IMG/VR virus record: IMGVR_UViG_3300017991_000003 | Location: 64,001 to 128,000 of that record | Direction: 5' to 3' (one strand) | Length of the DNA: 64,000 nucleotides | From: a virus | Part shown: positions 7,178 through 40,500 of the stretch, one piece after another | Numbering within the stretch: the first letter of the stretch is position 1 | Layout: every line of letters begins with the position of its first letter | Notes under the pieces: model-generated | Database searches by the model: none | What the model was told of the DNA's origin: nothing | The model's input: the letters and a program-made list of their open reading frames with translations, nothing else | Position numbers and translations under genes: made by a program

Positions 7178-8539
7178 TCAGCCCGAGAAGGGGTCGCCGG
7201 CCAAGGGGTCCTGCCCCTCAGCCGGCTCCTTACCGTCACCGGCCTGCTGAGCCCCCGCATCCGGGAGATCCTGGAGCGCGCCCAGGGCCGATCCCGACGT
7301 CTGAACCGGCTGAGTCGCCGGAGCTTGCGTCACTTCGGGCTGGGCCGGCGGGGCAAGGGGCCCTCCAAGAGGAGGAGCGGCGGGGGCAGCGGGCGCGGGG
7401 GCTGCGGCAGGTGCGGAGCCGGGAAAGGGCAGGCCGCCACCCTGCGGGGCCGGCTGCGGCGCCGGGGCCTGCTGCGGGAAGAGGCCGCTACCCTGCGCCG
7501 GCTGCTGGAACAGCGGGGTCGGAGCAGGCTGAGGCTGAGCACCGGATTGCTGCATCGGCTGCTGCATCGGCTGCTGCATCGGCTGCTGCATCGGCTGAGG
7601 CGCCGCCCCGGCCGGCGGCATTTGACCATAACCCGCGCCGCCGGGGACCGTGCCGGTTGCTTGGGAGCCAGGACAGATCTGATCCATGACCCCCGCGTTG
7701 TAGGAGAGGCCTCGAACACCCGGGTGCTCGTCGCAGATCTGCCGGTGCAGACGCAGGATTTCACGAGCCTCCGCCTCGGAGTAGGCCGGGTAGATCTTGT
7801 TGAAGTCCACCGAGCCGGCCAGAGCCGCGAAGTCGCCCTCAGGGTTGGGGGCCATGTAGGCCGCTAGGGCTGTGACTAGCTCCTCGGTCGTGCCGAACGT
7901 CTGTCCCTGGTTCTCGCCCAAGTAGTACATCGGCATCCAGTTACCCAGCTTCGGGGCCTGCTTCTCGTGGGTGCGGTTCACGTTCCACACCGAGCCAAGG
8001 ATCGAGCGGTTCTTCATCTGACTGAAGGCCAGGAACTGATCGAGCATGGACTGGTTAGAGAACATGACCCAGCGGATGCTCCACGGGATCGTCTGCTGCT
8101 GCTTGTTGACCCAAGGGGTCATGTTGAGGACGGCCGCGGCCATTCCCAGCATCGGTTTCGGCTTACCGAGAGCGGGTCCGAACAGGTCCGGCTGACCGTT
8201 CTCGACCGGGTTACCCGCGTTATCGACGCCGGTGATGTGGGCAGCACGAACGATCTCCCACGTGGGGAAGCTAGCGTTCGGCGTGTTTTTCCACCCAGTA
8301 GCCACCCGGTAGTGCGGGATGAGGGTGACGTCGGAAAGGAAGGCGACCTGGATCTGCTGGCCGCGGGGCGCGAAGAACTCGCGATGAGGCTTGCGCTCGT
8401 CCCAGGTCTTGGACCACGGTCCGCTGCCGGCACCGATGGAGACGTTCTCGTTCTGGGCGATGGCCTGGTACTGCTGAAGGCCGCCCTGGGCTTGACCGCC
8501 TTGAGCGAAGGGGGTCGCGGGGTTCGTGGGGTCTGTCAT
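7178..8539 (-). CDS. hypothetical protein with Gln/Pro/Ala-rich low-complexity C-terminus
   Basis: 453-aa ORF between polymerase and primase; tail contains (QQPM)n encoded by a tandem 12-bp repeat. Confidence 0.6.
   Translation of the reverse strand: MTDPTNPATPFAQGGQAQGGLQQYQAIAQNENVSIGAGSGPWSKTWDERKPHREFFAPRGQQIQVAFLSDVTLIPHYRVATGWKNTPNASFPTWEIVRAAHITGVDNAGNPVENGQPDLFGPALGKPKPMLGMAAAVLNMTPWVNKQQQTIPWSIRWVMFSNQSMLDQFLAFSQMKNRSILGSVWNVNRTHEKQAPKLGNWMPMYYLGENQGQTFGTTEELVTALAAYMAPNPEGDFAALAGSVDFNKIYPAYSEAEAREILRLHRQICDEHPGVRGLSYNAGVMDQICPGSQATGTVPGGAGYGQMPPAGAAPQPMQQPMQQPMQQPMQQSGAQPQPAPTPLFQQPAQGSGLFPQQAPAPQPAPQGGGLPFPGSAPAAAPAPAAPAAPPLGGPLAPPAQPEVTQAPATQPVQTSGSALGALQDLPDAGAQQAGDGKEPAEGQDPLAGDPFSG
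7549..7596. repeat. tandem 12-bp repeat (about 4 copies of tgcatcggctgc)
   Basis: Direct tandem repetition read in the sequence inside CDS 7178..8539; in-frame. Confidence 0.8.
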
Positions 8540-8554
8540 GATTCGTTGCGTCTG

Positions 8555-9574
8555 CTAGAGGAGGGAGGAGTATCGATCTGAGAGGTCTTGTTGCGTCAGG
8601 TACTTCGGGTCCTGATCGAGGTGGTACAGCATGCTAGGCACGCCGTGCTTCGTCAATACTTTGTTGACATTTTTGGCGGCATTCTGACCCTCGACATCGG
8701 GGTCCAGGAGGATGCCCACCAGGGACGGTTCGGAGGCTCGAATCAGCTTGGCCTTCTCCGCTGAGAAGGCGAGCCCGTTGATACCCGCGGCACGAGCCCC
8801 AAGCTGGACCAGGTGCATCGCATCAAAGGGGCCTTCAACCAAGGACAGGGGCTTACCGGCCCCATAGGGCAGTAGATGCTCGCCGAACAGGTGACGGCCG
8901 CTCACGAAAGGCCAGATCGTCCAGTACTTGAGGCCGTTTCCTGCTAGGGGCCGAACCTGTGCTCCGACGCAGCGAACGATGCCGACGTCTGGAGACACCA
9001 GGATGGGGAATACGAGGCAGGGCGCCTTGGTCGTTTTCGGGTTGTCGTATCGGTCGGTCCCCATGCCGTCGTCGGTGTAACCGGCGGGGACGGTGGTGCA
9101 GTAGAACTGCTCGATGGCAAAATCGGGATCGACCCCCTTAGCGGCCAGCACATCCCGTCCGAGGGGGAGCATCGGCACACGTAGCAGGTCAGCTAGGAAC
9201 ACGGTGTAGTCCGTGTCCGGGGTCGTACGGGTCTGTCGAGTGACGCCGGCAGCGGAGAAGTCCAGGCTTTCTAGCGCCAACTCCCGCTCTCGGGCCTTCA
9301 TCTGGAGGGCCAATCCCGCATACTGACCACCACTGAGGCGGTTCAGCTCGAGGAGCGTATCCCCCAGTGATGACAGGTGTTTACACGCGTGGCACTTCAG
9401 GAGGGTCACTCCAGGACCCACCGTCGCGGTCATCGACGGCCTTCGATCAGATCCTTTCCCATGAGTCCACGGAGCCAGCAGGCAGGAAAACTTCACATGG
9501 CGGTCCCCCGCGGGTCGAAGCTCCCCCGCTTGGGGCAGCTGGGCGAGGACGGTTCGGAGCTCTACCTCTTGCAT
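8555..9574 (-). CDS. DNA primase, DnaG-like (zinc finger + TOPRIM)
   Basis: CHC2-like zinc finger (KFSCLLAPWTHG...LKCHACKH) and TOPRIM-like segment (LSLVEGPFDAMH...ILLDPDVEGQNAA). Track start 9634 overlaps the divergent gene at 9633, so internal ATG 9574 used; start uncertain. Confidence 0.7.
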   Translation of the reverse strand: MQEVELRTVLAQLPQAGELRPAGDRHVKFSCLLAPWTHGKGSDRRPSMTATVGPGVTLLKCHACKHLSSLGDTLLELNRLSGGQYAGLALQMKARERELALESLDFSAAGVTRQTRTTPDTDYTVFLADLLRVPMLPLGRDVLAAKGVDPDFAIEQFYCTTVPAGYTDDGMGTDRYDNPKTTKAPCLVFPILVSPDVGIVRCVGAQVRPLAGNGLKYWTIWPFVSGRHLFGEHLLPYGAGKPLSLVEGPFDAMHLVQLGARAAGINGLAFSAEKAKLIRASEPSLVGILLDPDVEGQNAAKNVNKVLTKHGVPSMLYHLDQDPKYLTQQDLSDRYSSLL

Positions 9575-9632
9575 CTTTTCGGGTTCTCGGGGTTGGACTT
9601 CATAAGCTAAGACAGGGGAGGACCCCACACAC

Positions 9633-12600
9633 ATGGCCGATAACGTCCAGCTCTACGACGCGCATCTAAACCTCTGGACCCTCAGGACATCCGAGGACAC
9701 AGAAATCCACACGCCGCACCACGTGTCGCGGCTGGCGGACGGGGAGGGGCGCTTCTACAGGCCCGGACGGCCGGTACCTGTGTCGATCTACGGGACGGAC
9801 GGGGTCGAGATCAACATCGAGGCCGGCTCGATCGCTGTCAGCACAGACCACAACGAGGACTCAGTAGCGGTCTTCGGGTCGTCGACCCCTGAGGGGCTGG
9901 AAAACTTCAGGTCGCTGGTGGTGGACCCCCAGGGGCACCTCCAGACCACAGTGGTCTCAGCGCCTGGGGTGGAGCCCGTCGGGGACTCGCCCGACGCGGG
10001 GCAGCTAGGTACGGTCATCCTAGGGGTCCAGGTAGGGGCAACGCCAGCTAGTCAGGTCACGGGGGACGGTCGGACAGCCCCTCTGATCATGGACGATCGG
10101 GGCCGGCTCTTCGTCTCTTTCGGCAACTCCGTCGCGGTTCTGCCCTTCACGCAAAAGGGTGACCTACTTACTTATGACGGATCTGACGAAGTTGTCCTGG
10201 GCCCGACGGTCGACGACGCGCTTCTGACACTGGACTCCAGTACCAGTACCGGCCTCAGGTGGGTGAGCCCGGTGACGAGCTCCCCCAGCCCCGTGCTCTT
10301 CCTACGCGAGGATCTAACATGGGCTCTGCCCTCAGCAGGGGCACCGGGCGGGGCTGCGGGCGGAGACTTGGGCGGGACCTATCCGAACCCGTCTGTGGTC
10401 GCTATCCAAGGGATTTCCACTTCTGCGGCTGCGCCAACGCCTGGGCAGACCTGGGTGTACACCGGCAGCGCTTGGAGTCCGGGAAGCCCGGCTACCGGAG
10501 CTGCTACGGACCACGGGACGCTCACAGGGCTCCTCGACGATGATCACACCCAGTACATCCTGGCTGATGGCTCTCGAGACTTCTCAGGCTCAATCGGCAT
10601 GGGTGGGAATGAGATCACGGATGTGGCCTCTCCTATCCTCGTATCCTGGGCAGCTAACAAGGGTTACGTTGATGATCAGATCACCGCGTCCGTCATCACG
10701 GACCACGGCGGGCTAGGCGGGCTCGGGGATGACGACCATACCCAGTACGTGTTGGTGGCTGGCACTCGTGCGTTCACGGGCGATCAGAGCCTAGGCGGTA
10801 ACAAGATCACGAGTCTGGGGTCCCCGACCACCGCAAGCGATGGAGCCAACAAAGGTTACGTCGACGCTAACGTGGTCACGGACCACGGCGCTTTGATCGG
10901 GCTGGGGGATGATGACCACACCCAGTACATCCTGACTGCGGGGACTCGAGCCTTCAGTGGTAACCAGAGCCTAGGCGGCAACCTGATCACAAGCCTAGGC
11001 TCGCCTACTACCGCAAGTGGTGGTGCTAACAAGGGTTACGTTGACGCGGCTATCACGTCGGCAGTGATCACGGATCACGGAGGGCTTGGCGGCCTGACGG
11101 ACGACGACCATACGCAGTACGTCCTGGTCGCAGGTACTCGAGCGTTCACAGGCAGCCAGAGCCTGGGCGGTAACCTGATCACGTCGCTAGGGTCTCCTAC
11201 TGTTGTAAGTGACGCAGCTAACAAAGGTTACGTTGATGCGCAGATCCCGACGAGCCTACCCCCTAGCGGGGCTGCTAGTGGTGATCTAGGCGGCACGTAC
11301 CCCGGGCCTACTGTGGTGGCCATTCAAGGCACCGGAGTCAGTGCAAACGCTCCAAGTACTGGTGATGGCCTGGTTTACACCGGAGCGGCTTGGAGTCCGA
11401 CCGCGGTCTATCGACCTGGCGGGACGGATGTGGCTGTGGCAGACGGGGGCACCGGGGCGTCGGACGCGTCCACGGCGCGTAGCAATCTAGGCCTGACCAT
11501 CGGGCTCGACGTCCAAGCCCACTCCGCAGTTCTTGACGCTACAACGGCCAGTTACACAACCGCGGCCGAGGGTAAGCTCTCGGGCATCGAGACCAACGCT
11601 GATGTCACGGACACAGCCAACGTGACGGCCGCTGGCGCTGTCATGATCGGCACAACGGCCGCGGCCGGGGACCTGAGCGGTACCTACCCGAGCCCGACGG
11701 TCGTGGCCATTCAGGGGACTGGCGTCTCGAGCACTGCGCCGAGCTCTGGGCAGGCCCTGATCTACTCCGGCACTGTCTGGAGCCCCAGCACGCTCCCCAG
11801 CGGGGTGACGGACCACGGGGCCCTGACCGGACTCGGAGACGACGACCATACCCAGTACATCCTGGTTGGTGGCACTCGCGCCTTCACGGGCAACCAGTCG
11901 ATGGGCGGCAACCTGCTCACGTCGTTGGGGAGCCCGGTGGCGGTAACAGACGCAGCTAACAAGGGTTACGTCAATGCCTCGATCACCGCGGCCGTCGTCA
12001 CGGACCACGGGGCCCTTGACGGGCTGGCCGATGACGACCACACCCAGTACCACAACGACGCTCGGGCGCTGACGTGGTTGGGGACGCGCGACACAGATGA
12101 CCTGGACCCGAGCGCCACCCGTCTCTACATGAGCCCGGGTGAGCGCACCAAGCTCGCCGGGATCGAAGCGCTTGCCGATGTGACCGATGCGGCCAACGTG
12201 GCCGCGGCCGGCGCTGTCATGGTCGGTGACGCTGCGGGCGGTGATCTTAGCGGTACCTACGCAAACCCGTCCGTGGTCGCGATCCAGGGTACGGGTTGCT
12301 CTTCAGCAACGCCGACCGCCGGCCAGACCTGGGTCTACTCCGGGTCCCAGTGGAGTCCTGGCTCACCCGCTGTTGGTGGCGCGTCAGATCACGGAACCCT
12401 GACCGGGCTGGGCGACGACGACCACACTCAGTACATTCTTGTTGACGGTACACGGGCCTTCACAGGCGCAGTTAGTCTCGGTGGGAGCCAGATCAACAGC
12501 CTGGCTTCGCCCACGCTCCCAGCAGATGCAGCCAACAAGGGCTACGTCGACGACCAGATCCCGACGAGTCTACCCCCTAGCGGGGCAGCGTCTGGCGACC

Positions 12601-13409
12601 TTGGTGGGACCTACCCGGGCCCAGACGTGGTGGCTATCCAGGGGACCGCGGTCAACTCGGCGACGCCGACGACGGGTGAGGCCCTGCTCTACTCGGGAAC
12701 GCAGTGGAGCCCTGGGCCGATCAACTTCCTCGAGCTCAACGACGTCGATCCCACAGGCCTGACCAACCTCGACCTGTTCTACTACAGCTCGGCGTCGGGG
12801 ACTATCGTCCGGTCTAGCGGCCTCACGACCTACGCGTTCTACACGCACAGCGGATCGCACATCCACGGACAGTACGACGCAATCGACGGGGATCAGCTAT
12901 CGATCACCCAGCCGGGCGTCAACTACTCCCCGACGACCGACGCGACATACGGCACCAACACGGCGCACCTCGCTGCCCATCTGCGGGGTATCGGTCTGGT
13001 CCTGGAGGATGTCAGTCCCGCGGTCACCAAGCTCGCCGGGATCGAGGCGGGCGCTGAAGCCAACGACGTTCAGACCAAGAGCATCACGATCGAGGCGCCG
13101 ACCACGACGGAAGACATCTCGTTCTTCTACGCTCCGGTAGCGATGACGATCTCAGAGATGGTCACGGTCCTGGTGGGCTCTCCTACGCCGTCCCTAGCGT
13201 GGACGCTCCGGCACAGCACCGACAGGAGCGCTGTGGGCAACGAGGTCATCACCGGGGGATCCACGGCGAATAGTACGACGACCGGTAACGTGCTGACCTC
13301 CTTCAACGACGCAACGGTCCCAGCCAACTCCTTCCTGTGGGTTGAAACGGCGAGCCCCAGCACGAACGTGACGAGCTTCCAGCTCAGCGTTGAGTACACC
13401 GACGACTGA
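9633..13409 (+). CDS. tail fibre protein, repeat-rich
   Basis: 1258 aa; about 7 copies of a ~60-aa unit (TDHGxLxGLxDDDHTQYxL...GGNxITSLGSP...ANKGYVD) resembling phage tail-fibre repeats, plus 5 copies of GDLGGTYPxPxVVAIQG; GGGAGG SD before ATG. Confidence 0.85.
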   Translation: MADNVQLYDAHLNLWTLRTSEDTEIHTPHHVSRLADGEGRFYRPGRPVPVSIYGTDGVEINIEAGSIAVSTDHNEDSVAVFGSSTPEGLENFRSLVVDPQGHLQTTVVSAPGVEPVGDSPDAGQLGTVILGVQVGATPASQVTGDGRTAPLIMDDRGRLFVSFGNSVAVLPFTQKGDLLTYDGSDEVVLGPTVDDALLTLDSSTSTGLRWVSPVTSSPSPVLFLREDLTWALPSAGAPGGAAGGDLGGTYPNPSVVAIQGISTSAAAPTPGQTWVYTGSAWSPGSPATGAATDHGTLTGLLDDDHTQYILADGSRDFSGSIGMGGNEITDVASPILVSWAANKGYVDDQITASVITDHGGLGGLGDDDHTQYVLVAGTRAFTGDQSLGGNKITSLGSPTTASDGANKGYVDANVVTDHGALIGLGDDDHTQYILTAGTRAFSGNQSLGGNLITSLGSPTTASGGANKGYVDAAITSAVITDHGGLGGLTDDDHTQYVLVAGTRAFTGSQSLGGNLITSLGSPTVVSDAANKGYVDAQIPTSLPPSGAASGDLGGTYPGPTVVAIQGTGVSANAPSTGDGLVYTGAAWSPTAVYRPGGTDVAVADGGTGASDASTARSNLGLTIGLDVQAHSAVLDATTASYTTAAEGKLSGIETNADVTDTANVTAAGAVMIGTTAAAGDLSGTYPSPTVVAIQGTGVSSTAPSSGQALIYSGTVWSPSTLPSGVTDHGALTGLGDDDHTQYILVGGTRAFTGNQSMGGNLLTSLGSPVAVTDAANKGYVNASITAAVVTDHGALDGLADDDHTQYHNDARALTWLGTRDTDDLDPSATRLYMSPGERTKLAGIEALADVTDAANVAAAGAVMVGDAAGGDLSGTYANPSVVAIQGTGCSSATPTAGQTWVYSGSQWSPGSPAVGGASDHGTLTGLGDDDHTQYILVDGTRAFTGAVSLGGSQINSLASPTLPADAANKGYVDDQIPTSLPPSGAASGDLGGTYPGPDVVAIQGTAVNSATPTTGEALLYSGTQWSPGPINFLELNDVDPTGLTNLDLFYYSSASGTIVRSSGLTTYAFYTHSGSHIHGQYDAIDGDQLSITQPGVNYSPTTDATYGTNTAHLAAHLRGIGLVLEDVSPAVTKLAGIEAGAEANDVQTKSITIEAPTTTEDISFFYAPVAMTISEMVTVLVGSPTPSLAWTLRHSTDRSAVGNEVITGGSTANSTTTGNVLTSFNDATVPANSFLWVETASPSTNVTSFQLSVEYTDD
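10506..12560 (+). repeat. intragenic array of ~180-bp diverged repeats in the tail fibre gene
   Basis: Repeated DDDHTQY / ANKGYVD units seen in the translation and DNA. Confidence 0.75.
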
Positions 13410-14545
13410 TGAGTGACTTCCTAGTCCAGCGCGATCAGACCGACGTGCCCACCGCCGGCACGACTGCGTCGATCACCGCCGTCTCGAGCCTGAACTCTGC
13501 ATTCGAGATGATGAGCAGCAACCGCCGGATGTCTGGCGGCCCCTCTGCGGTTACGACCAACCAGGAGGCTGATGACCTCTCCGCGGCCGGCGTGCTCACA
13601 GACACGAGCACGATCACCTACTCGCGAGTCTCCGGGTCGAGCTCGAACACGATGCGCTGCGCCATGGAGGTGGTGGAGTACACGGGCCCAGCGGGCGGCC
13701 CCAACGAGTTCATCGTGCGGGGGCGGTACACAGGTCTACTGACCGGCGGCACCAACTCAGTAAGTGTCACCGTGTCCGGTGTCTCTGACAAGGACAGGTG
13801 TATCCCGATCATCACCGGCATCTTGTGCGAGGACACAACGGACGGGGGTGCCCGGGCTACCGGTCTGGTCCTGCTCACAAACGCGACTACCGCAGTGGTC
13901 TATGCAGGCGGGTCCGCCTCTCGTGTGACTGTGCACTTCACGCTAGTTGAGTTCACTGGATCGGCGTGGACTGTCGGGCACGCTGCGGCTGGTCCTGTCT
14001 CGGCTGACTCGGGGTCCGCTACGATCGTCACGGGATCAAACGGCTCGAGCGGAACGACCGTGGATGTCGGGGACTGGGGTACCGCTTGCATCTTCGCGCA
14101 TCATGCGGGCGATCTGGGCTCGGACGCCAATCAGGCCATCGCAGATAACTGGCCCAACATCACACCCACCTCCGGGAGCACGACCTCAGTCGACTACACC
14201 TTCAACTCCCAGCACGACGGGGTCAACAACCTACACCTGGCTCACGTTCTCCAGCACGACGATATGGTCGTGCAGCGGATCACAGACACTGGCAGCCATA
14301 CCGGGGCACGGAACGTGTCGATCCCGTCCACGCTCTCGTCTATTAGCGAGGCTTTCGTGCGAGTGTGCCGAACCTCGAGCGGTGCGGGTACGGCCTACGG
14401 CCGTGGTTGGGTCAACGCCCGGCTGACTACGACCAGCAACGTAGAGCTCTGGGTCCACCGAAACGGCAACTCGATCGATACCCGCATCGAGGTTGTTGAC
14501 CTCTCTAGCATCTCCTCGGCTACCAGGAGGATCTTCGTCGTCTGA
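13409..14545 (+). CDS. hypothetical virion/tail-fibre-associated protein
   Basis: 378 aa, Ser/Thr/Gly-rich; start overlaps upstream stop (TGATG). Confidence 0.6.
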   Translation: MSDFLVQRDQTDVPTAGTTASITAVSSLNSAFEMMSSNRRMSGGPSAVTTNQEADDLSAAGVLTDTSTITYSRVSGSSSNTMRCAMEVVEYTGPAGGPNEFIVRGRYTGLLTGGTNSVSVTVSGVSDKDRCIPIITGILCEDTTDGGARATGLVLLTNATTAVVYAGGSASRVTVHFTLVEFTGSAWTVGHAAAGPVSADSGSATIVTGSNGSSGTTVDVGDWGTACIFAHHAGDLGSDANQAIADNWPNITPTSGSTTSVDYTFNSQHDGVNNLHLAHVLQHDDMVVQRITDTGSHTGARNVSIPSTLSSISEAFVRVCRTSSGAGTAYGRGWVNARLTTTSNVELWVHRNGNSIDTRIEVVDLSSISSATRRIFVV

Positions 14546-15354
14546 TGACTGACAACATCCGAATCCAGACGGTCGACGGAGAGCGGTGGATCCGCACCTC
14601 CGAGATCGGCGGGGTCCACCACCCACACCACATCGCGCGCCTGTCCGACGGCTTGGGCGTGGTGTACAGTCCGGGCTATCCCGTCCCGGTCTCGATCTTT
14701 TCCGCAGATGGGTCGGCAACCATTACGCTTAGCGGCGGCGACCTAGCTGTTGGTCTGGACCATACCGAGGACTCGATCACGATCTGGGCGCACACCAACG
14801 CGGCGGGCTCCGGCAGCCCTGTCGCTGTCGTGGTCGACACCGATGGCCACCTCCAGGTCGACGTGCTCTCGAGCGATTGGCCGCAGCAACCTTTCGACGA
14901 ACCGGTACCAGCTGAGTACTCCGGCATGGTTATGCTCGGGGTCCAGACGGGTAGCCCTGAAGCACAAGCCACGGATGGCGCCTTCGCGCCCTTCCAGTTT
15001 GACAAGCAGGGTCGCCTGATCGTATCGATCGACCAGTCCTACCAAGGCGGGGCCTTGAAGCTGGTATCGGCCACCAAGACGAGCCCGTTCGTCGTGTGGG
15101 AGGATGATGTGCCCGCCTCTCTCCACTATGTCGACGTCTATCGTTGTTCTGGAACGTACACAATTGGCCTCCCTTCTCCCGCTGATCCCGCGGCAGCGGA
15201 TGGCCGAGTAGTCTGGATCAAGAACATAGGCACAGGCATGCTTACACTGAGTCCTGAAGGCGGGACCCTTGAGCTCAAAGCGGGGCTACTGCTAGCTAGC
15301 CGATCCTCTATCACCTTGCGCTCCAACACTGTAGACGACTGGGAGATTCTCTAA
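14545..15354 (+). CDS. tail fibre/spike paralogue sharing the N-terminal domain of 9633..13409
   Basis: First ~160 aa align with the fibre N-terminus (RTSE, HxPHHxxRLxDGxG, PGxPVPVSI, GHLQ, LGVQ, GRLxVS); TGATG coupling. Confidence 0.6.
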   Translation: MTDNIRIQTVDGERWIRTSEIGGVHHPHHIARLSDGLGVVYSPGYPVPVSIFSADGSATITLSGGDLAVGLDHTEDSITIWAHTNAAGSGSPVAVVVDTDGHLQVDVLSSDWPQQPFDEPVPAEYSGMVMLGVQTGSPEAQATDGAFAPFQFDKQGRLIVSIDQSYQGGALKLVSATKTSPFVVWEDDVPASLHYVDVYRCSGTYTIGLPSPADPAAADGRVVWIKNIGTGMLTLSPEGGTLELKAGLLLASRSSITLRSNTVDDWEIL

Positions 15355-16127
15355 TGACGTTCCTACCGCTCGACACAGACTATTACGCCGCCGTCGAGGC
15401 AGGCGAGGTTCCAGGTGCGACCCTGCTCAACAAGTTTGGCAGGGCGGAGATCGGGACATCGTTGACGCCTATCAGTCGGGAGCTGGTCTACCAGACCCCT
15501 ACAACGGCCACAGTGCTGGAGTTTGTATCGGATGATGCCAACGATACGAGCGCAGGGACTGGGGCTCGGGAGATCTCGATCATTGGCCTGAACTCCTCGT
15601 GGGAGGAGGTGATGCAGACCGTCACAACAAACGGGACAACAGCGGTAGCCCTCTCGACCCCGCTAATCAGGATGTATCGGTGGTACGTGACGAAGTCCGG
15701 AACCTACGCCACGTCATCAACGGGATCACATGCCGGGACGCTGACTATCCAAGAATCTGGTGGCGGCACGGTGTGGTCGTCAATCGGCGTAACACCCTTC
15801 CCCACCGGGCAGTCCCAAATCGGGATCACGACCATCCCCATCGGTAAAAGAGGCGTCCTGCTGTCTACTCACGTGTTCGTTGACACGTCTAAGAGTGTTG
15901 ATCTGTACCTGTTTCAGCGGCCTAACGCGGACGTCGTTACAGCGCCCTACACAGGAGCGATGCGCGTTGTTCGAGAGTTCCAGGGTGTCACAGGCCCGAT
16001 TACCTACGTTCCCCGCGGAGGGGCCGGCGCATTCGTCGGGCCTTGTGATATCGGGTTTATGGGCCAGGTAACAGTTGGCACGGCCGCTGTGTCCTGCGAC
16101 TTCGAGCTGCTTCTGCTAGATCTTTAG
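15354..16127 (+). CDS. hypothetical structural protein
   Basis: 257 aa; TAATG coupling to upstream gene; last gene of fibre operon. Confidence 0.55.
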   Translation: MTFLPLDTDYYAAVEAGEVPGATLLNKFGRAEIGTSLTPISRELVYQTPTTATVLEFVSDDANDTSAGTGAREISIIGLNSSWEEVMQTVTTNGTTAVALSTPLIRMYRWYVTKSGTYATSSTGSHAGTLTIQESGGGTVWSSIGVTPFPTGQSQIGITTIPIGKRGVLLSTHVFVDTSKSVDLYLFQRPNADVVTAPYTGAMRVVREFQGVTGPITYVPRGGAGAFVGPCDIGFMGQVTVGTAAVSCDFELLLLDL

Positions 16128-29816: not shown

Positions 29817-30655
29817 CGGACCACCTCTCGCCACTTCTCGGCCGCCGTACCGAGCTCCCGGCCCAGTACGATCTCATCGACGTCCGTCTGCCAGGTCATG
29901 ATGCGATCCTCGGTCCAGCGCTGCCATCGACAGAACTGCCAGAGCATGACAGTGTTCATGTTCAGGCCCAGATCACGCCGCCTGTCGTAGTCGGTGTAGT
30001 CACCTTCGGGGAGTTGCTCGAAGTACGGGACCTCTCGAAGCGCTTCGGGAACCTCAAACCCCTCAGGGAGCGGCCCGCTGAAAGGTGGCATGGTCAGGGA
30101 GTGCTCGTAGTGCGCGTTGTAGCCGGACTCGTTGATGAGCTTGAGGACCATCTCCGGGATCGACTGGAGCCCGTTGTACCGGTACTGGCGGAACACAGCA
30201 CCCGTGCACATGCCTCCCGTATCTTGCTGGTTCGGTAGGAATGATTTGTACAGAACCGGGGTGTACCCCGCCTCCAGATGCGGCTGCTGCTTGGTGAAGA
30301 AGCAGCGGGCATCGGAGAGGCGCCCGTCGTAGATCGAGATGATGAAGACGCGCGCAGGCATGGCGACCAGGAATCGAAGACCCTCCGGCCAGCCGCGGTT
30401 CTCGCGGACGTCGATGGAGATCCTCTCAGCCCGCGGAGGCACGACTGCCATGAAGTGCTCGTTGTGGGCATCCTTGGTGTGTGCCAGGATGTTTACGTAG
30501 GGGTGGTACGGAAAGAGGGCGCCAGCGCGCCGGCCTCGTTCCTCGAGGGCGGTCACGACGTCTTCTTCCCGCGTGATGCGGTTGACGTGAACCGTTTGAT
30601 GGATCACGTGACCATCGACGATGACGAGTCGATCGTGGGTTTCGAAGTTGGTCAT
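29813..30655 (-). CDS. hypothetical protein translationally coupled to the reverse transcriptase (candidate accessory/effector)
   Basis: 280 aa; ATG at 30655 overlaps RT stop at 30652 (ATGA); no recognised motif. Confidence 0.55.
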   Translation of the reverse strand: MTNFETHDRLVIVDGHVIHQTVHVNRITREEDVVTALEERGRRAGALFPYHPYVNILAHTKDAHNEHFMAVVPPRAERISIDVRENRGWPEGLRFLVAMPARVFIISIYDGRLSDARCFFTKQQPHLEAGYTPVLYKSFLPNQQDTGGMCTGAVFRQYRYNGLQSIPEMVLKLINESGYNAHYEHSLTMPPFSGPLPEGFEVPEALREVPYFEQLPEGDYTDYDRRRDLGLNMNTVMLWQFCRWQRWTEDRIMTWQTDVDEIVLGRELGTAAEKWREVVR

Positions 30656-31755
30656 GGGAGGTACGCGCGTGTCTCGGCGCTGTAGTTGGTGGGGGTGTTG
30701 TGGTGCACGTCTTGCGCGACACGCAGTTGTAGTTGGAGCGAGGCTCCTTGATCAGGGTTGATGAAGTTGACGTGGTTGACGAGGCCGGCGAGGTGGTCAA
30801 AGTTCACCGGCACAGGGCCTCGGTGCGTCAGCTCTCCCCCACGGGGACAGCGGCCGAAGTGCGCGTCGCAGATGATCTTGTGCAGCCGGGCGCGAAGCGC
30901 GCGCCGTCGAGGCCTGGGAGCGCTTAGCTTCTCGTTGACGACGACGCCGCAGACCGTCATGCGACTGCCGATGGAGCGGAATCGGATCTTTTCGGGGGCG
31001 ACCTTGTAGCCCAGCTTTTTCAGGAACCCGATGACGGGGTACTGGAACTGGTACAGCTTTCTGTAATCCGCCGTGAAGGTCATGTCGTCGCTATAGCGGG
31101 TGTACGCGATCGGCAGGAGTCTGATCTGAGTCTGCGTCTTTCGCCGGCGCTCTCCGTGGTTGTCGACCCACCGCATCGTGGGGTTGGTCCGCCAGGACTC
31201 GATCAGCTTCAGGATGCCGAAGTCCACCTGAGCCCCTGCCAGGTTGGAGAGGAAGGGGGACGTGGGGGCTCCTTGTGGTAGGCCACCATCCAAGAAGCAG
31301 GCGCGTTTGACTCTGTCAAGGAAGAGCCTGTCGGCACGTGACATCGGTTGCATGTACCCCCTGGTCAGGAAGTACTCCAGCTGCTCGAGGACGACGTGGG
31401 GAGACACGGACGGGAAGAAGTCCCGCAGATCGATGTCCAGCTTGTACCGGTGACCTACATGCGGGGCGGCGTTGGTGTGGATACCACGCTTGCGGACGTA
31501 GGCATGAGCTGCTGGGGAGGCCCCGATCCCGAGCGCTTTGAGCTCGCTGAGGATGAGCTTTTGAGCAGCCATTAGCTCCGGGCAAGGGATCTGGAGCTTT
31601 CGCATCTTCTGACGTGTCCGACCGTTCGAAAGCGTCTCGAGTACCGGGACTTCTCGACCATCCCGGGTACGCCTGGTCTTGGGGATTCGTGCGAATCGGT
31701 AGTGCTCAGCTTGAGCGGTGTCCGTCAGGACATTGAATGATGGGTAGCCAGCCAT
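30652..31755 (-). CDS. reverse transcriptase, retron-type
   Basis: 367 aa; RT motifs: HTNAAPHVGHRYKLDIDLRDFFPSV (NAxxH + motif 2), LPQGAPTSPFLSNL (QGxxxSP), YTRYSDDMTF (YxDD), TVCGVVVN (VTG-like); GAGGGT SD before ATG 31755. Confidence 0.85.
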   Translation of the reverse strand: MAGYPSFNVLTDTAQAEHYRFARIPKTRRTRDGREVPVLETLSNGRTRQKMRKLQIPCPELMAAQKLILSELKALGIGASPAAHAYVRKRGIHTNAAPHVGHRYKLDIDLRDFFPSVSPHVVLEQLEYFLTRGYMQPMSRADRLFLDRVKRACFLDGGLPQGAPTSPFLSNLAGAQVDFGILKLIESWRTNPTMRWVDNHGERRRKTQTQIRLLPIAYTRYSDDMTFTADYRKLYQFQYPVIGFLKKLGYKVAPEKIRFRSIGSRMTVCGVVVNEKLSAPRPRRRALRARLHKIICDAHFGRCPRGGELTHRGPVPVNFDHLAGLVNHVNFINPDQGASLQLQLRVAQDVHHNTPTNYSAETRAYLP

Positions 31756-34192: not shown

Positions 34193-36247
34193 ATGCCCGA
34201 CCCCTATCCGAACCAGAACCAGGCGCTGTACGCCCTCCAGCAGCGGATCCAGGCCCAGCAGCAGCAGCAAATGCGGGCTGAGTCCATGGCCGTGGGGGGC
34301 ACGAACTCCATGGCCACTGAGTCCATGCGGGTCTCGATGATGCTGCAACAGCAGCAGCTTCAGCTCCAGATGCAGCAGCAGATGCAGCAGCTGCGCTCGT
34401 CCATGTACGGGACGTTCACGGCTGGGGCGGGCGCCGCATCCCCGGTCATGCGCCAGAACTTCGGCTCTCTGGTGATGGGGGCTGGGGTGGCTCGGGGCGT
34501 CAACACGATGACCGGCGGGCTCCTATACCCGGACTACAACTACCATTGGGGCCTCACCCGGGCTCGGATGGAGCAGGACGCGTCGGACGAGCTCCGTCAG
34601 CGGATGTTCAGCGATGTCGGGAACGAGTTGATCGCTGGCCTGGTCCCGGACGTGATCCGACGCCGGACCGGGGCGGCCTTCGCAGGCTCGAGGCCTGAGT
34701 TTGTGCGGGCAGCTTATGCTCGCTACTCCGGTTTGCGGGGCGGGGACGTGGCCGCGTTCGGCGGTGGAGGTAACGTTGACGGACCTGGTCTGCGATTGCG
34801 GGCTGACGCGACACAGAGCTCAGCGCGGGCGTTCGAGGCCGGGCTTTTGAACCTCAACCGCCGGCTTGGGTATGCCCTCGGTAGCGATGAGGTGAGCATG
34901 CTCCAGGACGTCACGGCAGGCCTCTCGGTCCACCAGGCCTTCCGAGGTCAGCGCGCTGGGGAGTCGGTCCTTGCCTCGGATAACCGCCAGGTTCAGAGCC
35001 TGATTAGCAGCATTCATGACCTGAGTCGTGCTCTCCAGCTGAACGTTGATCAAACGCGCGAGATGGTGAACATGGGCCGGCAGCACGGCTTGATGCCTAA
35101 CAGCTCGGCGTTCCAGGCTCTGGGAGCCATCGGCCAGGGCGGAAACCTGATCCAGATGAGCAACGCGGATCGGGCCCGGTACGCTATGCCGATCATGGCT
35201 CAGGCCCGCGGGATGGGCATGGACGCGGTCACCGCAGTCAACCGGCGGTTCGGTAGTGCGGAGGGCGTCCTAGGCCGCTACCGGGCTGGCCTCATGTCTG
35301 ATGCGCAGCTGTTCCGATTCGGCGGGACCAGTGAGGACGACGCCGCGATGCGCGTCGCGGAGTATCAAGAGCGGCTCGGTCTGGGATACGCCTCGCGGTT
35401 CGGAGGCAGTCTTGGGGCACTCTCCTATGCGGGGCAGTCTGTCGGAGGTGCTATCAGCACCGGGGCCCGGTTGGGTGCGGTTCTTGGATCCAACCCTCTG
35501 GCAGGTTTGCGTGCTTCTATGAGTGGGGCGGTGCGCTCGAACATGGCAGGCTCGATGCAGATGGATGCTTACGCCTATGCGCAGGATGCCTACCGCATCG
35601 GCGAATCGATTCAACCGGGCGGCGGTGAGGTACTTGCCGCTCGAGTATTCGGCCAGATGATCGGTGAGTCTGACCCGGTTCAGGCTATGAACATGTATCG
35701 GCAAATTGCCGGTGAGGTCGGCGCTGTCCAGCGTGGTACGTCGCTCAGTGGGGCAGAGTCTCTGCGGTTTGTCCGTACCCGTCGAATGATGCAGCAGGTG
35801 ACCGGCGAAGCCCCGGATATGTTGGATACAGCTAGGCTGTATCAATCTTTGGCGGGACGGGATGTGACCGCGGTGAGTGTTGCCCGGGCGCTAGCCCTCT
35901 CGGGAGCAGGCAGCAACACGCAGACGTCGCGCGAGTCTATCAACAGTGGCTATCGACAGGCGTCCGTGGATAAGTTCCGAAAGCTGATTACGGGACAGAC
36001 GGATCCGTCGCTCCTAGCCGTGATTGCCGAGATCTCCAACCTAGATGGGACGGGACTATCGGTGGATGTTCTTCAGGACATGGCCATCAACAAGAACAGC
36101 TCTGGGTGGAACACCGACGCTGTCAGTGTTCGGGAGCTCCTGACGATGGATCAGTTCCTCGGTAACTTTGGGAAGATCAACAAGAACCCAGACAAGCCCC
36201 CGAGCGGGACTGAGAACAATCCGATCTACGTGAAGACGGTGAGCTGA
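34193..36247 (+). CDS. large hypothetical protein (possible virion or internal protein)
   Basis: 684 aa; Gln-rich N-terminus (QQQQLQLQMQQQMQQ), Gly/Ala/Ser-rich body; ATG 34193. Confidence 0.6.
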   Translation: MPDPYPNQNQALYALQQRIQAQQQQQMRAESMAVGGTNSMATESMRVSMMLQQQQLQLQMQQQMQQLRSSMYGTFTAGAGAASPVMRQNFGSLVMGAGVARGVNTMTGGLLYPDYNYHWGLTRARMEQDASDELRQRMFSDVGNELIAGLVPDVIRRRTGAAFAGSRPEFVRAAYARYSGLRGGDVAAFGGGGNVDGPGLRLRADATQSSARAFEAGLLNLNRRLGYALGSDEVSMLQDVTAGLSVHQAFRGQRAGESVLASDNRQVQSLISSIHDLSRALQLNVDQTREMVNMGRQHGLMPNSSAFQALGAIGQGGNLIQMSNADRARYAMPIMAQARGMGMDAVTAVNRRFGSAEGVLGRYRAGLMSDAQLFRFGGTSEDDAAMRVAEYQERLGLGYASRFGGSLGALSYAGQSVGGAISTGARLGAVLGSNPLAGLRASMSGAVRSNMAGSMQMDAYAYAQDAYRIGESIQPGGGEVLAARVFGQMIGESDPVQAMNMYRQIAGEVGAVQRGTSLSGAESLRFVRTRRMMQQVTGEAPDMLDTARLYQSLAGRDVTAVSVARALALSGAGSNTQTSRESINSGYRQASVDKFRKLITGQTDPSLLAVIAEISNLDGTGLSVDVLQDMAINKNSSGWNTDAVSVRELLTMDQFLGNFGKINKNPDKPPSGTENNPIYVKTVS

Positions 36248-36948
36248 TGGGGAGCATCGACGACGTCCTGTCTGGCACCGGCCCCGACGATACGGATCTG
36301 ACCCAGGGTCCGCAGGTGTCGAGCTCGGATGATTACGAGATCGTGCTTGGGTACGATCCTGCGGATTATCGCCACCTGGGTGCGGCGATGGGGGCGGAGT
36401 ACGACAAGGTCCCTGCCACGCTGGTAGTTCGCGACATCGGAGACGCGGCCACGGCGCAGGAAGGGATCATCGATGCAGCCAGCACAGCGTTGGCTCAAGT
36501 ACTGCCCTTCCCGCTCGGTCTGGTAGCTAATGCTGGGCTCGAGATCGCGCTCTCGCCGATCGTATTCATCACAGACAAGCTGATCCTTACCAGCGCGGTC
36601 GAGCCTCGCAGCGCCCGATCGGCTATGGTGATGAGCTTCAATCAGCCGACGGTCTACACGTCGGGCATGCAGCCCTACATTTTCCGGTACGCGGGTCACG
36701 TGTTGATCAACGAGCTGGATGGGGACGGGCGCAACCAGTTCTACGCTGCCTACCGGGAGTACCTGCGCGCCTCAGCTAGCCTGGTCGGGGCGGAGCGGCA
36801 GACCATGCCGTGGGTCGTAGAGCTCACCTTCCGAGATATGTTCCGCGCCGGGTATGTGGTCGACCTGTCGATGTCGATCAACGCAGCAGAGCCTAGCAAG
36901 GCTGACATCTCGTTCACCCTCTTCGTGATCGATGACCGGTTCTCCTGA
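36247..36948 (+). CDS. hypothetical protein
   Basis: 233 aa; TGATG coupling to upstream gene. Confidence 0.55.
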   Translation: MGSIDDVLSGTGPDDTDLTQGPQVSSSDDYEIVLGYDPADYRHLGAAMGAEYDKVPATLVVRDIGDAATAQEGIIDAASTALAQVLPFPLGLVANAGLEIALSPIVFITDKLILTSAVEPRSARSAMVMSFNQPTVYTSGMQPYIFRYAGHVLINELDGDGRNQFYAAYREYLRASASLVGAERQTMPWVVELTFRDMFRAGYVVDLSMSINAAEPSKADISFTLFVIDDRFS

Positions 36949-37502
36949 TGGCCTTTGAACCTCGAGACACCGAGCTGCGGGAGCGCTTCGGCGAACAGGC
37001 CCAGGAGCTCTACGAGGGCGACCGGGCGGCTGTCCGTGTCTTCCCCCTGGATGCGACAGGGGCTCTGGTTTTGACCAATCCGGTGGCCGAGTTCGATCAG
37101 CTCTTGATCGGACGAGTCGAGGAGCCGGATCGGGAGCGGGTGCAGTACAGCCAGTCGTTTGACGGCAACAAGCTCTACGCCTACGGCAACGATCACCGGG
37201 TCTATGCGATCTCCGCGGCCTTGCTCGATACGGACCTGGGGACGACGATTCAACCCCCATCAGGCAGCGAGGCGAGCGCGTGGGAAGGGCGCGGGCATCG
37301 TGACTGGGTGCAGTTCTTCGAGCAGTACGCTAGTCTGTGGGCATGCGCTCGGGATCGTCTGCTGGTCCAGCTGACCTACGGTCGGCGCCAAGTCTACGGG
37401 GCCTTCCTTGAGTCGACGCCCAACCTCGTGGCCTCAGCGCCGCACCGGCTGGATCTCCTGCTCTCCTTTTACGTGACCCACAGTCAGCCCATCGAGTTCT
37501 GA
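36948..37502 (+). CDS. hypothetical protein
   Basis: 184 aa; TGATG coupling. Confidence 0.55.
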   Translation: MAFEPRDTELRERFGEQAQELYEGDRAAVRVFPLDATGALVLTNPVAEFDQLLIGRVEEPDRERVQYSQSFDGNKLYAYGNDHRVYAISAALLDTDLGTTIQPPSGSEASAWEGRGHRDWVQFFEQYASLWACARDRLLVQLTYGRRQVYGAFLESTPNLVASAPHRLDLLLSFYVTHSQPIEF

Positions 37503-40500
37503 TGACTGCCGAGACCCGAGCCGGCCTCCTAGCATCCCAGTGGAAGATCTTTCTGGATGGCGTGGAGGTTCCGCACCATGGGTTCAGCATGGTCATGTCT
37601 CAGGATCAGGTCAGCGAGGTGATGCTGAGCCTGGAGCCGGACAAGATCCTGCTCGAGCTTCGGCCGCAGACGATGGTGCACATCTTCGCCAAAGATCGAT
37701 TCCCTGACCCGGCTCCTGGGCAGGAGGATGAGGAAGGTGGTGTGCAGTTTGCCAAGACCTATACCTCGGACGAGGACGAGCTCAAGGACACGTGGCACCT
37801 GTTCTGGGAGGGCGTGGCCGCTGGGCGCACCCACCAGAAATCCAAGGGCAATAGGTCCATCCAGGTTCGAGCACGAGCCTTGGTAGAGAGCCTAGAGCGC
37901 ACCCCGGCCTTCATGATGGGTATGGGAGGGATCGAGTACAGCTCTATTGCTTCCGGCAGCCGACTGCCTGCGACTGTGGCGGGTGTGATCGAGGGCGGCG
38001 GGCCTTCGTCGGTAGACACGCTCAGCCTGTTCACGCTGGCGGATCTCTTCACTAACGACGGGGAGACCGGTTCCGATGTTCCTGGCCGTGATAGCGCTAC
38101 TCCGCGGTTCGCTGAGCGCTTGATCCGCTTGATCACCTACCTCAGTAGTTACAACGGGGTGCTACGTCAGCACGTGGTCCGTGGCCGGCTCCTGAACAAG
38201 ATCGCGTCTATCCCGGATAGCATCCTCGAAGGGATCCTCGAACGATCTGTGGGCCTGAGCCTGCTGGGCGACATGCAGAACCGAATCACGTCGCGCAGCT
38301 CGGTGCTCGACATCATTCGGCAGGTGATGTCCTATGGGTTCTATCACCTGGTCCAGGTCCCTATGCCTTACCGGCCGAGTAAGCAGCCGGAGATGGGATC
38401 GATGATCCCTACTCTGACCGGGAAGCAGGATGAGGAGCAGGCTACCGCCCACCAGATTCCCTACGAGTACTACCGGAACGACTACGTGTTCGTGCCGGAG
38501 ACGTACTACGCGCTGCCGCCTCCGTGCAACTTCGTGTTCCCGGATGAGATGGCAGACCTGTCCATCGGGCGGGAGTTCCAGTCGGAGCCGACGCGGCACC
38601 TGGTACAGGACCCGCACCTAGCCTCCTTCGTTGGTAACTTCTTCTACTGGCTGGCTCCTGAGGACATCATCCGCAAGGCGCGGGAGGGTGCTGGTGATGA
38701 CGTGACCTCGGCGAACCTCTTCGCCATGGCGTCCACGTTTGGCCGCTCGATCAACGTGAGCGGGGCCACGTCACCGTACGCATACCCGGACTCCGCCGAC
38801 TTGGAGAGCGGGTCGGTGCGTAGCCTCCTTGGCGCTGTATCGGACCTAGAGCTGGAGAAGGGTATTGTCCCGAGCTTCGGGCAGAACCGGTTCGAAGCCT
38901 TGGCAGCCGCGGCGTACCTGAGCCGCACAATCCCACGCACGGAGGACCAGGCCACGGCCCAGTCGATCGAAGACTTTGCTAACCCGGAAAATGCTGCGTA
39001 CGCCGACCTGATGGCGGCGGTGGCTAACTACCAGCTTCAGCTGATGCGCTACCGGCGCCAGGGCCAGGTCTCGATGCTTGGGCACCGGTGGATCATCCCC
39101 GGGCTTCCAACCATCATCTTCGACTCGGACATCTCGTACTTTGGTCAGGTCGTGTCGACCACCTTCGTGGTCAACTCTGATGGCCAGGAGTCGACGACTC
39201 TTCAGCTGGATCGTACTCGGCCTGTTCCGAAGATGGAGATCGAGGAGATCCGAGCCGCGCTCGAGGGCCTCTCCACGAAGCTCCAAGAGCTGCAAACCCA
39301 GAAGAGCAAGGTTGCGGACCAGGCGCTGGGGCAGACGATCTCCTCGGCGCTCTCAGGCCCCCTCGCGTCTCAGACTACGCAGTACGGCGGGCTGGGCGCC
39401 AAGATCGAGCAGACTCAGTCCGCGCTCCAGAACTGGAACACGTACATCGGTGGAGATACCGTCGACCTGGTTACGACGACGGGCGCTCCGATCCAGGAGA
39501 CTCTGACGATTGAGGGCACGCAGTTCGATGGGACCGGCTTGACGACCTACTTCCAGGACCTATCGACGGAGGCTGCGGAGATTCAAGCAGGCCTGGATGA
39601 GCTTCTGGTCGATGGGGCGGCTGTCGCAAAGGCTCTCAATACTGGGGAGATCGCTGTTGGCGGATCTGCTTTCTCCACGACCCTGACCAAAGGTGACCAG
39701 ACCATCTACGCGGCGGGCAATGTCAGTCCAGCGTACTTGGCATACCTGTTCCTCGACGTCCCGGTCCTGGTTGATACGACTGGGCAGATCACAGCAGCCA
39801 AGGCGGCGTTGGGTGACGGCTTCTCGGTGTCGGGACTCAAGAGCGCGCTAGGCTCCATTGTCAACGGCGGCGCCTCCAGCGACGTGTTTACAGGTGGCGA
39901 GGCCCCGAACACCGTGGCCGGTGCCCTCGCGGTCCTGACCGTGGCGGCGACGTACTACGAGCTGGCCACGGCGGCGATTGTCGAGTGGCTTACGATTCAG
40001 AAGGACATCGCAGATTCTGGCGAGAACTTGGACTTCCTCGATCTCCCGCCCTCGACCCAGGCTGCGGCTGATCAATCCTACAAAGACCAGTACCAGACGA
40101 TCGTCGACACACTGACGAATGAGATCATCGAGGACGGCCAGAAGGTCCTTGAGGACTTCGATACCCGCTTGGACTGGCCGGCGCCCCCGGCCTTCTTCTC
40201 TGAGGACTTGATTGCCACGGAGAAGTTGGATGACCTGTACCAGACCTCTTTCGGATGTAAGCCGTTCTACACCGGCCCGTACACGGCGACAGCAACGAAC
40301 GAGACTGTAGCGGCCATCCGAGCATCCTTGACTGAGTTGGATCTTGGGGAGCTTGAGACTGAGTCGGGCCTGAGTATGCAGGATCGACTGGAGTACTACC
40401 TCGAGTATCTGTCCGGGGTCTCGGCGTTGAACAACGTCTACCCCATCCTGGAAGGGCAGGAGGAGCTGACGGACGACGTGGCCCCGCCGCCTAGCTGGCA

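Follow-up and report, generated by a model that had tools for sequence, protein, structure and literature searches.

Organization of the two fibre-cassette genes

The DNA analysed here (the window) is a stretch of 64,000 nucleotides corresponding to positions 64,001 to 128,000 of the IMG/VR virus record IMGVR_UViG_3300017991_000003. It contains a cassette of four plus-strand open reading frames (ORFs; 9633-16127), in which each start overlaps the preceding stop by 1 nt. Two of these ORFs, encoding a long fibre protein of 1258 amino acids (aa) and a protein of 269 aa (p269), begin with the same kind of N-terminal module. The two modules belong to distinct paralogue clades, here called alpha and beta, and one gene of each clade is found in all six related lineages compared. 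The main features of the two genes are:

9633..13409, plus strand: ORF of the long fibre protein (1258 aa), with an alpha-clade N-terminal module
9633..9788, plus strand: fibre head motif (aa 1-52), MADNVQLYDAHLNLWTLRTSEDTEIHTPHHVSRLADGEGRFYRPGRPVPVSI, matched at residue 1 by a head-only hidden Markov model (HMM)
9789..10136, plus strand: fibre A/B repeat module (aa 53-168), from profile search
10137..10502, plus strand: fibre neck (aa 169-290), including KGDLLTYDGS...GLRWVSP, conserved in orthologues with a long alpha protein
10353..12654, plus strand: shaft of repeats (TDHGxLxGLxDDDHTQY..., GDLGGTYPxPxVVAIQG...), direct-repeat families D1-D6
13029..13406, plus strand: C-terminal distal domain of the fibre (aa 1133-1258), common to proteins P0006, P0007 and P0009 (E 3e-47 to 1.8e-50)
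14545..15354, plus strand: ORF of p269 (269 aa), a short protein with a beta-clade N-terminal module
14545..15039, plus strand: N-terminal module of p269 (aa 1-165), the head (aa 1-52) followed by an A/B unit; BLASTP E=2e-32 against the fibre
15040..15351, plus strand: C-terminal domain of p269 (aa 166-269), 45-60% identical in orthologues

With composition-based statistics, BLASTP aligned residues 1-166 of the fibre with residues 1-165 of p269 in a single significant high-scoring segment pair (HSP; E=2e-32), in which 70 of 168 positions are identical (42%), with 57% positives and 5 gaps. In the MAFFT alignment the motifs RTSE, GHLQ and LGVQ are in register, as are HTPHHVSRLADGEG of the fibre with HHPHHIARLSDGLG of p269, and the pairs PGRPVPVSI/PGYPVPVSI and GRLFVS/GRLIVS (fibre/p269). 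Beyond residue ~166 BLASTP detected no similarity between the two proteins, all other HSPs having E>4. A preliminary description of this locus had reported two ORFs of these lengths, homologous over ~160 aa at their N-termini and completely divergent afterwards, and had proposed a pairwise alignment as a check. Both ORFs are present, this alignment gave the significant similarity described above, all six motifs which had been listed as common to the two N-termini are in register, and the divergence after the shared domain was confirmed.

No DNA-level repeat joining the 5' ends of the two genes was found, indicating that the duplication is old and not recent. Moreover, searches of all six-frame ORFs of the window (hmmsearch, with profiles of the module and of the head only) revealed no third copy of the module.

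Anatomy of the N-terminal module

The shared module of ~165 residues is composed of a head of ~52 aa and a single A/B unit of ~110 aa. The head has the consensus MxDN..(R/K)T(S/T)(E/D)..G(V/I)HxPHH..RL......Y..P.PV and, in every protein matched by the head-only HMM, is confined to the residue 1 end and never internal. A search of 1.84 billion representative proteins with the module profile gave 310 matches (protein clusters) at E<=1e-3 and 39 at E<=1e-10. About 12 of the matches cover the whole module, aligned from residue 1-9, in proteins of 183-1841 aa; most others span only positions ~55-167, the A/B unit, often in tandem arrays that reach 12 stretches in P0013 and also occur in P0015, P0018 and P0020. 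The head-only profile, run against a set of 5.8 billion proteins, retrieved only three tiny fragments. A D..G.L.V strand closes both halves of the unit, A and B, and the two halves show weak similarity to each other (hhalign E=2.9e-5 over 18 columns).

The head is the best-conserved segment between the two clades (mean identity 38%, compared with 28-31% elsewhere), and the first 49 residues hold 15 of the 28 columns that are near-invariant in both clades, comprising DN, T, G, H-PHH, RL, Y and P-PV. The positions that discriminate the clades include positions 9, 12, 140 and 151 of p269.

Neither the head nor the A/B unit matched Pfam, NCBIfam, or PDB sequences and profiles, and a Pfam scan of 46 members of the repeat family returned only scattered single hits, no family covering the repeat. 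Neither p269 nor the shared module matched a PHROG family, and PDB searches by sequence and profile yielded nothing beyond weak monobody and D13 hits (E>0.1). The structure prediction that had been suggested for the module was run with AlphaFold2 on a 45-sequence alignment; it gave a predicted local distance difference test score (pLDDT) of 79 but a predicted template modelling score of 0.29, the modelled chain being extended, with three strands within residues 3-27 and hardly any intrachain sheet elsewhere. Full-length p269, modelled from 17 sequences, was poor (pLDDT 52). An extended monomer model is compatible with what a protomer of an intertwined oligomeric fibre, such as a homotrimer, would give, though it does not prove such an architecture. 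Foldseek found nothing significant with the module model, the best values being E=3 in PDB and 0.019 in BFVD.

The preliminary description took the whole shared module as a virion-attachment domain, and this part of it has to be narrowed. As ~110 of the ~165 residues, or two thirds of the shared region, are ordinary shaft-type repeat, sharing alone does not imply a common docking function, and the candidate for the docking element proper is the ~52-residue head, the only part specific to residue 1. A different possibility would be that the module does not dock at all and serves as a folding or oligomerisation starter joined to the first shaft unit, with the short proteins acting as assembly factors or decoys and attachment being provided by another protein or another part. 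Shaft-like internal arrays of up to 12 A/B copies would fit this proposal, as would the existence of short proteins made of the module plus ~25 residues (P0011, P0016 and P0017) and, adjoining the beta gene of contig L009, an ORF with zinc-finger-like CxxCxGxG motifs reminiscent of DnaJ-type chaperones. It would leave unexplained, however, why the best-conserved part always stands at residue 1. In well-studied fibres, among them T7 gp17, T4 gp34 and P22 gp9, it is the N-terminus that lies next to the virion, and the known intramolecular fibre chaperones are C-terminal, which also counts against a mere starter; we regard this explanation as very improbable.

Distal parts of the two proteins

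The long protein resembles fibres: through its shaft repeats it matches the PHROG tail-fibre families 2710, 11393, 26630 and 11338 (E from 8.6e-23 to 1.3e-09), and it also matches the head-decoration family 2647 (E=3.8e-17). Its orthologues have 732 aa (P0009, in L024), 858 aa (P0006, in L026) and 697 aa (L001). The neck is 66-80% identical to those of L001, L024 and L026, and residues 1-289 align with P0009 in phmmer, while the C-terminal 130 aa are 64-72% identical in L024 and L026 and have no significant match in L001_697 or L009_933. P0006 and P0007 (1165 aa) appear near-identical except for an internal tandem duplication of ~307 residues, which indicates that shaft length changes by duplication of repeat blocks.

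A reverse transcriptase gene is present in the window (30652-31755, minus strand; Pfam RVT_1 4.4e-14, phrog_2825 1.4e-34). A diversity-generating retroelement acting on the fibre was considered and rejected, no template/variable repeat pair being found anywhere in the 64 kb.

The orthologues of p269 in L001, L024 and L026 are 61-65% identical to it overall, the C-terminal domain being less conserved than the N-terminal module (67-73%). The sole PDB matches of this C-terminal domain are weak, FN3/monobody-like and non-significant (E 0.17-0.8), and it is absent from the beta proteins of 188-191 aa. Indeed, the short alpha proteins (P0016, 183 aa, and L008_227) and the short beta proteins (P0011, 189 aa; P0017, 188 aa; L009_191) consist of the module plus ~25-60 residues. 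As the short partner often has hardly anything beyond the module, it does not have to serve as another receptor-binding device.

In L009 (12857-14657, minus strand) the beta gene has on one side a gene for a BD-FAE-type esterase and on the other an ORF of 66 aa that resembles a DnaJ-type zinc finger, containing four CxxCxGxG motifs together with an acidic tail. The short beta gene of L013 (3282-4229, minus strand) likewise has a BD-FAE esterase gene nearby. These neighbours may point to a partnership of the short beta protein with an enzyme or a chaperone.

Alpha and beta genes in related lineages

The comparison covers six lineages in which both genes can be read, namely the window, L024, L026, L001, L009 (with L010-L011) and L008. 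Their cassettes, with protein lengths in aa, are:

Window: alpha 1258, then 378, beta 269, 257
L024: alpha 732, then 382, beta 268, 407
L026: alpha 858, then 380, beta 269
L001: alpha 697, beta 268
L009-L011 (180-183 kb): alpha 933 on the plus strand; beta 191 on the minus strand, behind the BD-FAE esterase gene
L008 (149 kb): alpha 227 as the first gene, beta 1841 as the last of seven

A search of six-frame ORFs with hmmsearch found exactly two module-bearing genes per lineage, and in 6 of 6 these are one alpha and one beta. The alpha protein is the long one and the beta protein the short one in five of the six; the roles are reversed in L008, where alpha has 227 aa and beta 1841 aa. In a neighbour-joining tree of 13 modules the split between the two clades has 100% bootstrap support. 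Clade alpha contains the window fibre, L001_697, P0006, P0009, L009_933, P0016 and L008_227, and clade beta contains p269, L001_268, L009_191, P0011, P0017 and L008_1841. Identity is 25-92% within clades (alpha 29-70%, beta 32-92%) and 24-40% between them. Among orthologues the N-terminal modules are 47-73% identical across lineages while the distal parts have been exchanged.

Neither a near-identical DNA search nor tblastn of p269 against 50,697 phage records gave a match, and the PolA of the window is <30% identical to that of any cultured phage, indicating that this phage has no annotated relative. No relatives were found in 185,579 bacterial and archaeal genomes, and thus there is no sign of prophage copies. 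A scan of metagenome contigs retrieved the L001 contig again and nothing further.

A conserved N-terminal module combined with exchange of distal parts typically marks a virion-proximal base that carries a variable tip. The idea of a shared base with different distal parts, put forward in the preliminary description, is thus strengthened by the homology, by the fibre-like nature of the long protein and by the swapping of distal parts in relatives. The same cannot be said of its proposal that a single anchor serves two receptor-binding appendages: the modules are two old paralogue clades, both kept in all six lineages, and the short partner is often a nearly bare module (191 aa in L009, 227 aa in L008). 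The retention of both paralogues in every related lineage suggests either two kinds of docking or a junction between alpha and beta, and not two tips competing for one socket.

The explanation that we favour, to which we give a probability of about one in two, is that the modules are the virion-proximal ends of two non-interchangeable types of appendage, one for each paralogue. The cassette at 9633-16127 would encode virion appendage proteins of a large phage, and the shared module would be the virion-proximal end of both proteins, the head probably docking an oligomeric protein on the particle and the A/B unit starting the fibre. The particle would most likely offer two kinds of docking position, one per paralogue, and either paralogue could carry the long shaft that reaches the receptor. 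In the phage of the window, alpha would be the 1258-aa fibre, with its repeat shaft and exchangeable distal domain, and beta, having only the module and a C-terminal domain of 100 residues, would form a short stub.

The strict retention of one alpha and one beta in 6 of 6 lineages could also be accounted for if the two modules bind each other, in a branched or adaptor-linked complex of the kind formed by the CBA120 and G7C tailspikes (see below), in which one partner sits on the particle and the other hangs from it. One partner frequently consists of the bare module (183-227 aa), as would be expected of an adaptor, and both genes lie in one cassette, whose genes in the window overlap stop-to-start; however, the role swap of L008 fits less well with a fixed relation of adaptor and cargo, and the alpha and beta genes of L009 are on opposite strands. 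Such a junction seems to us possible but rather unlikely.

The remaining choice, which was the reading of the preliminary description, is one shared socket into which both proteins plug, giving mixed or alternating long and short appendages comparable to the two fibre types of adenovirus 40/41 (see below). It draws on the 15 near-invariant positions that the head keeps across both clades and on the use of the same head motif by single fibre proteins of other phages (see below). A common socket, however, would not select for two diverged plugs over such evolutionary depth, and the paralogues are only 24-40% identical, with both clades retained everywhere and with positions that tell them apart (9, 12, 140 and 151 of p269). 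We consider it unlikely.

Several observations weigh against the favoured model of two docking specificities. No capsid, portal, sheath, tail or baseplate match was found among the genes scanned in the window, which are a subset of its ORFs, and the cassette sits among replication genes (PolA, primase, DHH and DnaB); in L009 the beta gene is even on the strand of the replication genes. The location among replication genes and the strand of the L009 beta gene are unusual, but at this phage size they are not evidence against a structural role. It must also be taken into account that much of the shared module is generic shaft repeat, that Foldseek gave no significant structural match of the module to any known anchor domain, and that the count of one alpha and one beta per lineage leaves out the contigs of P0016 and P0017, which are too short or have no DNA available. 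Finally, the presence of these proteins on the virion, their oligomeric state, the existence of separate docking sites and the contact of the head with a tail, neck or capsid protein are inferred.

Module parts in other phages

In the head-only HMM search, the head motif (30-50 residues) was found to open otherwise unrelated fibre-like proteins in other phages, among them contigs whose gene sets are siphovirus-like or T4-like:

L015, 5926-7656: head-motif protein of 576 aa
L016 (and L017), L016 10001-11314: head-motif protein of 437 aa
L018-L021, L020 6847-8871: head-motif protein of 674 aa
L022, 8001-9341: head-motif protein of the Microcystis phage Mwe-JY08 (cultured cyanophage), WWT39904.1

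The 437-aa gene of L016 is ~6 kb downstream of a tail protein gene (phrog_4271) with a weak match to central tail fibre J, and just upstream of a gene with a weak match to Rz-like spanins. The 674-aa gene of L020 has neck-type genes (Hc2, T4 gp15-like) on one side and terminase genes on the other, and its contig also encodes sheath and portal proteins; in the 674-aa protein the head is followed by ~18 copies of a GGLTDTELRATPVPVSG-type repeat. The podovirus MW202647.1 encodes a protein with A/B repeats within its structural gene cluster, after the gene for a P22-type "phage stabilization protein" and a short distance before the lysis genes. In P0036 an A/B unit is joined to a C-terminal domain that bears the annotation tail fiber protein in RefSeq, in the records of Verrucomicrobia phage P8625 and of two Flavobacterium phages.

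These neighbourhoods bear on where the appendages might be attached. The proteins could be neck or capsid fibres, whisker-like or head fibres, whose modules dock on the collar or the capsid, considering that the fibre of the window matches head-decoration family 2647 at 3.8e-17, that the L020 protein is encoded between neck-type and terminase genes, and that the cassette adjoins no recognisable tail gene. The matches of the fibre to tail-fibre PHROG families are nevertheless stronger and more numerous, and the related proteins of L016 and MW202647.1 are encoded towards the end of the tail gene cluster, not far from the lysis genes. Gene position is weak evidence either way, and a neck or capsid location appears quite unlikely.

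A bolder reading would be that the head is a docking peptide portable across tailed phages that differ in genome size and gene organization, namely the 150-190 kb family described here, a contig encoding a J-like tail protein, another encoding T4-like neck, sheath and portal proteins, and the Microcystis phage. In the large phages it would have split into an obligate two-component fibre base of alpha and beta, either partner carrying the shaft. This is speculative and rather doubtful; if true, it would be a heteromeric fibre root, which has not been described for any phage so far.

Comparison with known systems

Modular receptor-binding proteins, in which the N-terminal anchor is conserved while the C-terminal part can be exchanged, are known from T7 gp17 and from the tailspikes of Klebsiella Przondovirus (PMC6872550, PMC12692247). 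As in these proteins, the N-terminus at residue 1 is conserved here, the distal part is swapped and the shaft varies in length by the number of repeats. Unlike in T7 gp17, there are two diverged anchor paralogues, both obligatory, and their genes are in the replication region and not beside tail genes. An attachment domain of the T7 gp17 type was rejected, as neither protein has a relevant Pfam family, PDB searches were empty and the best Foldseek value was E=3; a P22-type tailspike head-binding domain or a CBA120 XD domain was likewise rejected, with no PDB match by sequence, profile or Foldseek.

Branched complexes are formed by TSP4/TSP2 of phage CBA120 and by gp66/gp63.1 of phage G7C. As in CBA120 and G7C, one genome encodes several appendage proteins with paralogous N-terminal regions. 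In the branched TSP1-4 tailspike complex of CBA120 the paralogous N-terminal domains serve in assembly and anchoring, with one protein carrying another, and the anchor domains are T4 gp10-like XD domains with solved structures (PMC8825819). The case presented here differs from CBA120 in having two partners only, one of them often a bare module, and any branching would be putative.

In adenovirus 40/41, long and short fibres stand on identical penton bases. Two sets of long tail fibres, gp52 and gp53, have been reported in the Shigella phage Sf14 (PMC11821841). Like these, the cassette encodes side by side two fibres of different length, an arrangement presumed to widen or stage receptor recognition; unlike them, its short member may have no receptor-binding part, the paralogue that is long varies between lineages, and the pair has been read from genes and not seen in particles.

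The invertible tail-fibre genes of Mu, P1 and P2 have a constant N-terminal Sc segment and alternative Sv/Sv' C-termini, switched by DNA inversion within one gene. They resemble the present case in combining one constant virion-proximal part with alternative distal parts. Here, in contrast, the two genes are separate and their divergence is permanent, and neither inverted repeats nor an invertase came to notice within the cassette.

The principle of a constant base and a variable tip is already well established, while the module itself is new to the family libraries searched. The features that are new and can be tested are the conserved pairing of alpha with beta, the exchange of roles between them, a head motif that is portable and a cassette that varies in content while its site is fixed; the pair, the swap and the cassette make a testable case of host-range gene turnover in large uncultured phages. 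Which receptor-binding tips can be exchanged, whether naturally or in phage engineering, depends on the part of the fibre that is inserted into the particle. The repeat unit occurs in >300 environmental phage protein clusters, and defining the module would improve the annotation of many "hypothetical" fibre genes. In conceptual terms the gain would remain modest, except if the two modules turned out to build a heteromeric base.

Other cassette genes and flanking region

The remaining features of the cassette and its upstream region are:

9434..9632, no strand assigned: divergent intergenic region between the primase gene (minus) and the cassette (plus), from sequence reading
13409..14545, plus strand: ORF of p378, an accessory protein of 378 aa, whose start overlaps the fibre stop by 1 nt
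15354..16127, plus strand: p257, last cassette gene (257 aa), matching phrog_8198 at E=1.6e-17

The p378 gene is conserved after the fibre gene in L024 (74%) and L026 (57%) and absent in L001, and p378 has no match in Pfam, PHROG, NCBIfam or PDB. Its family comprises 29 environmental members of 375-644 aa with assorted N- or C-terminal extensions, none of which (0/29) has the head motif. Among the members, P0176 has a signal-peptide-like start, P0181 has a Ser/Pro-rich tail, and two carry the Joint Genome Institute (JGI) label 'trimeric autotransporter adhesin'.

Residues 10-173 of p257 match residues 618-775 of P0032 (857 aa), in which this domain is downstream of matches to A/B-type repeats, near the C-terminal end. 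Such an order suggests that p257 may be a distal fibre element encoded separately here, through gene fission or fusion. Its place is taken by an unrelated gene of 407 aa in L024 and by nothing in L026.

A role of p378 or p257 as a Tfa/gp38-type chaperone would fit their position, but was discarded, as neither has a chaperone match in Pfam, PHROG, NCBIfam or PDB; members of the p378 family with up to 644 aa and the fusion of the p257 domain to a repeat shaft in P0032 also argue against it.

In the intergenic region, GGGGAGGA (9615-9622) precedes the fibre ATG by 10 nt. A sigma-70-like promoter was not detected in 9434-9632, and a scan of the cassette for promoters and terminators performed no better than on shuffled sequence. 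In the identical contig L005 the adjacent primase has a called length of 292 aa.

The cassette runs opposite to its flanking genes, between the primase gene and DnaB, a location that is the same in every relative retrieved, with differing contents. This interval behaves as a variable island of 2 to 7 plus-strand genes in which only the alpha and beta module genes are constant. Its minus-strand neighbours also vary and include genes for DHH phosphoesterase, SLT or destabilase lysozyme and ribonucleotide reductase.

The window is the part of a large phage genome devoted to replication and nucleotide metabolism, and its sequence recurs on contigs that measure 174,660 bp and up to 193 kb. The genes scanned in it include those for PolA, primase, DHH phosphoesterase, destabilase-type lysozyme, DnaB, exonuclease, thymidylate synthase, a sigma factor and the reverse transcriptase. 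The sigma-70-family factor (40938-41711, plus strand; Sigma70_r3 3.7e-07, phrog_351 9e-19) is preceded by four large ORFs of 684, 233, 184 and 1159 aa without a family match (34193-40981).

Between the PolA and primase genes, at 7178-8539 (minus strand), lies the gene for a 453-aa protein, also without a family match, with a P/Q/A-rich tail in which PMQQ occurs four times in a row. In most related contigs (L005, L008, L009-L011 and L024/L025) the same position is occupied by a gene of 338-462 aa.

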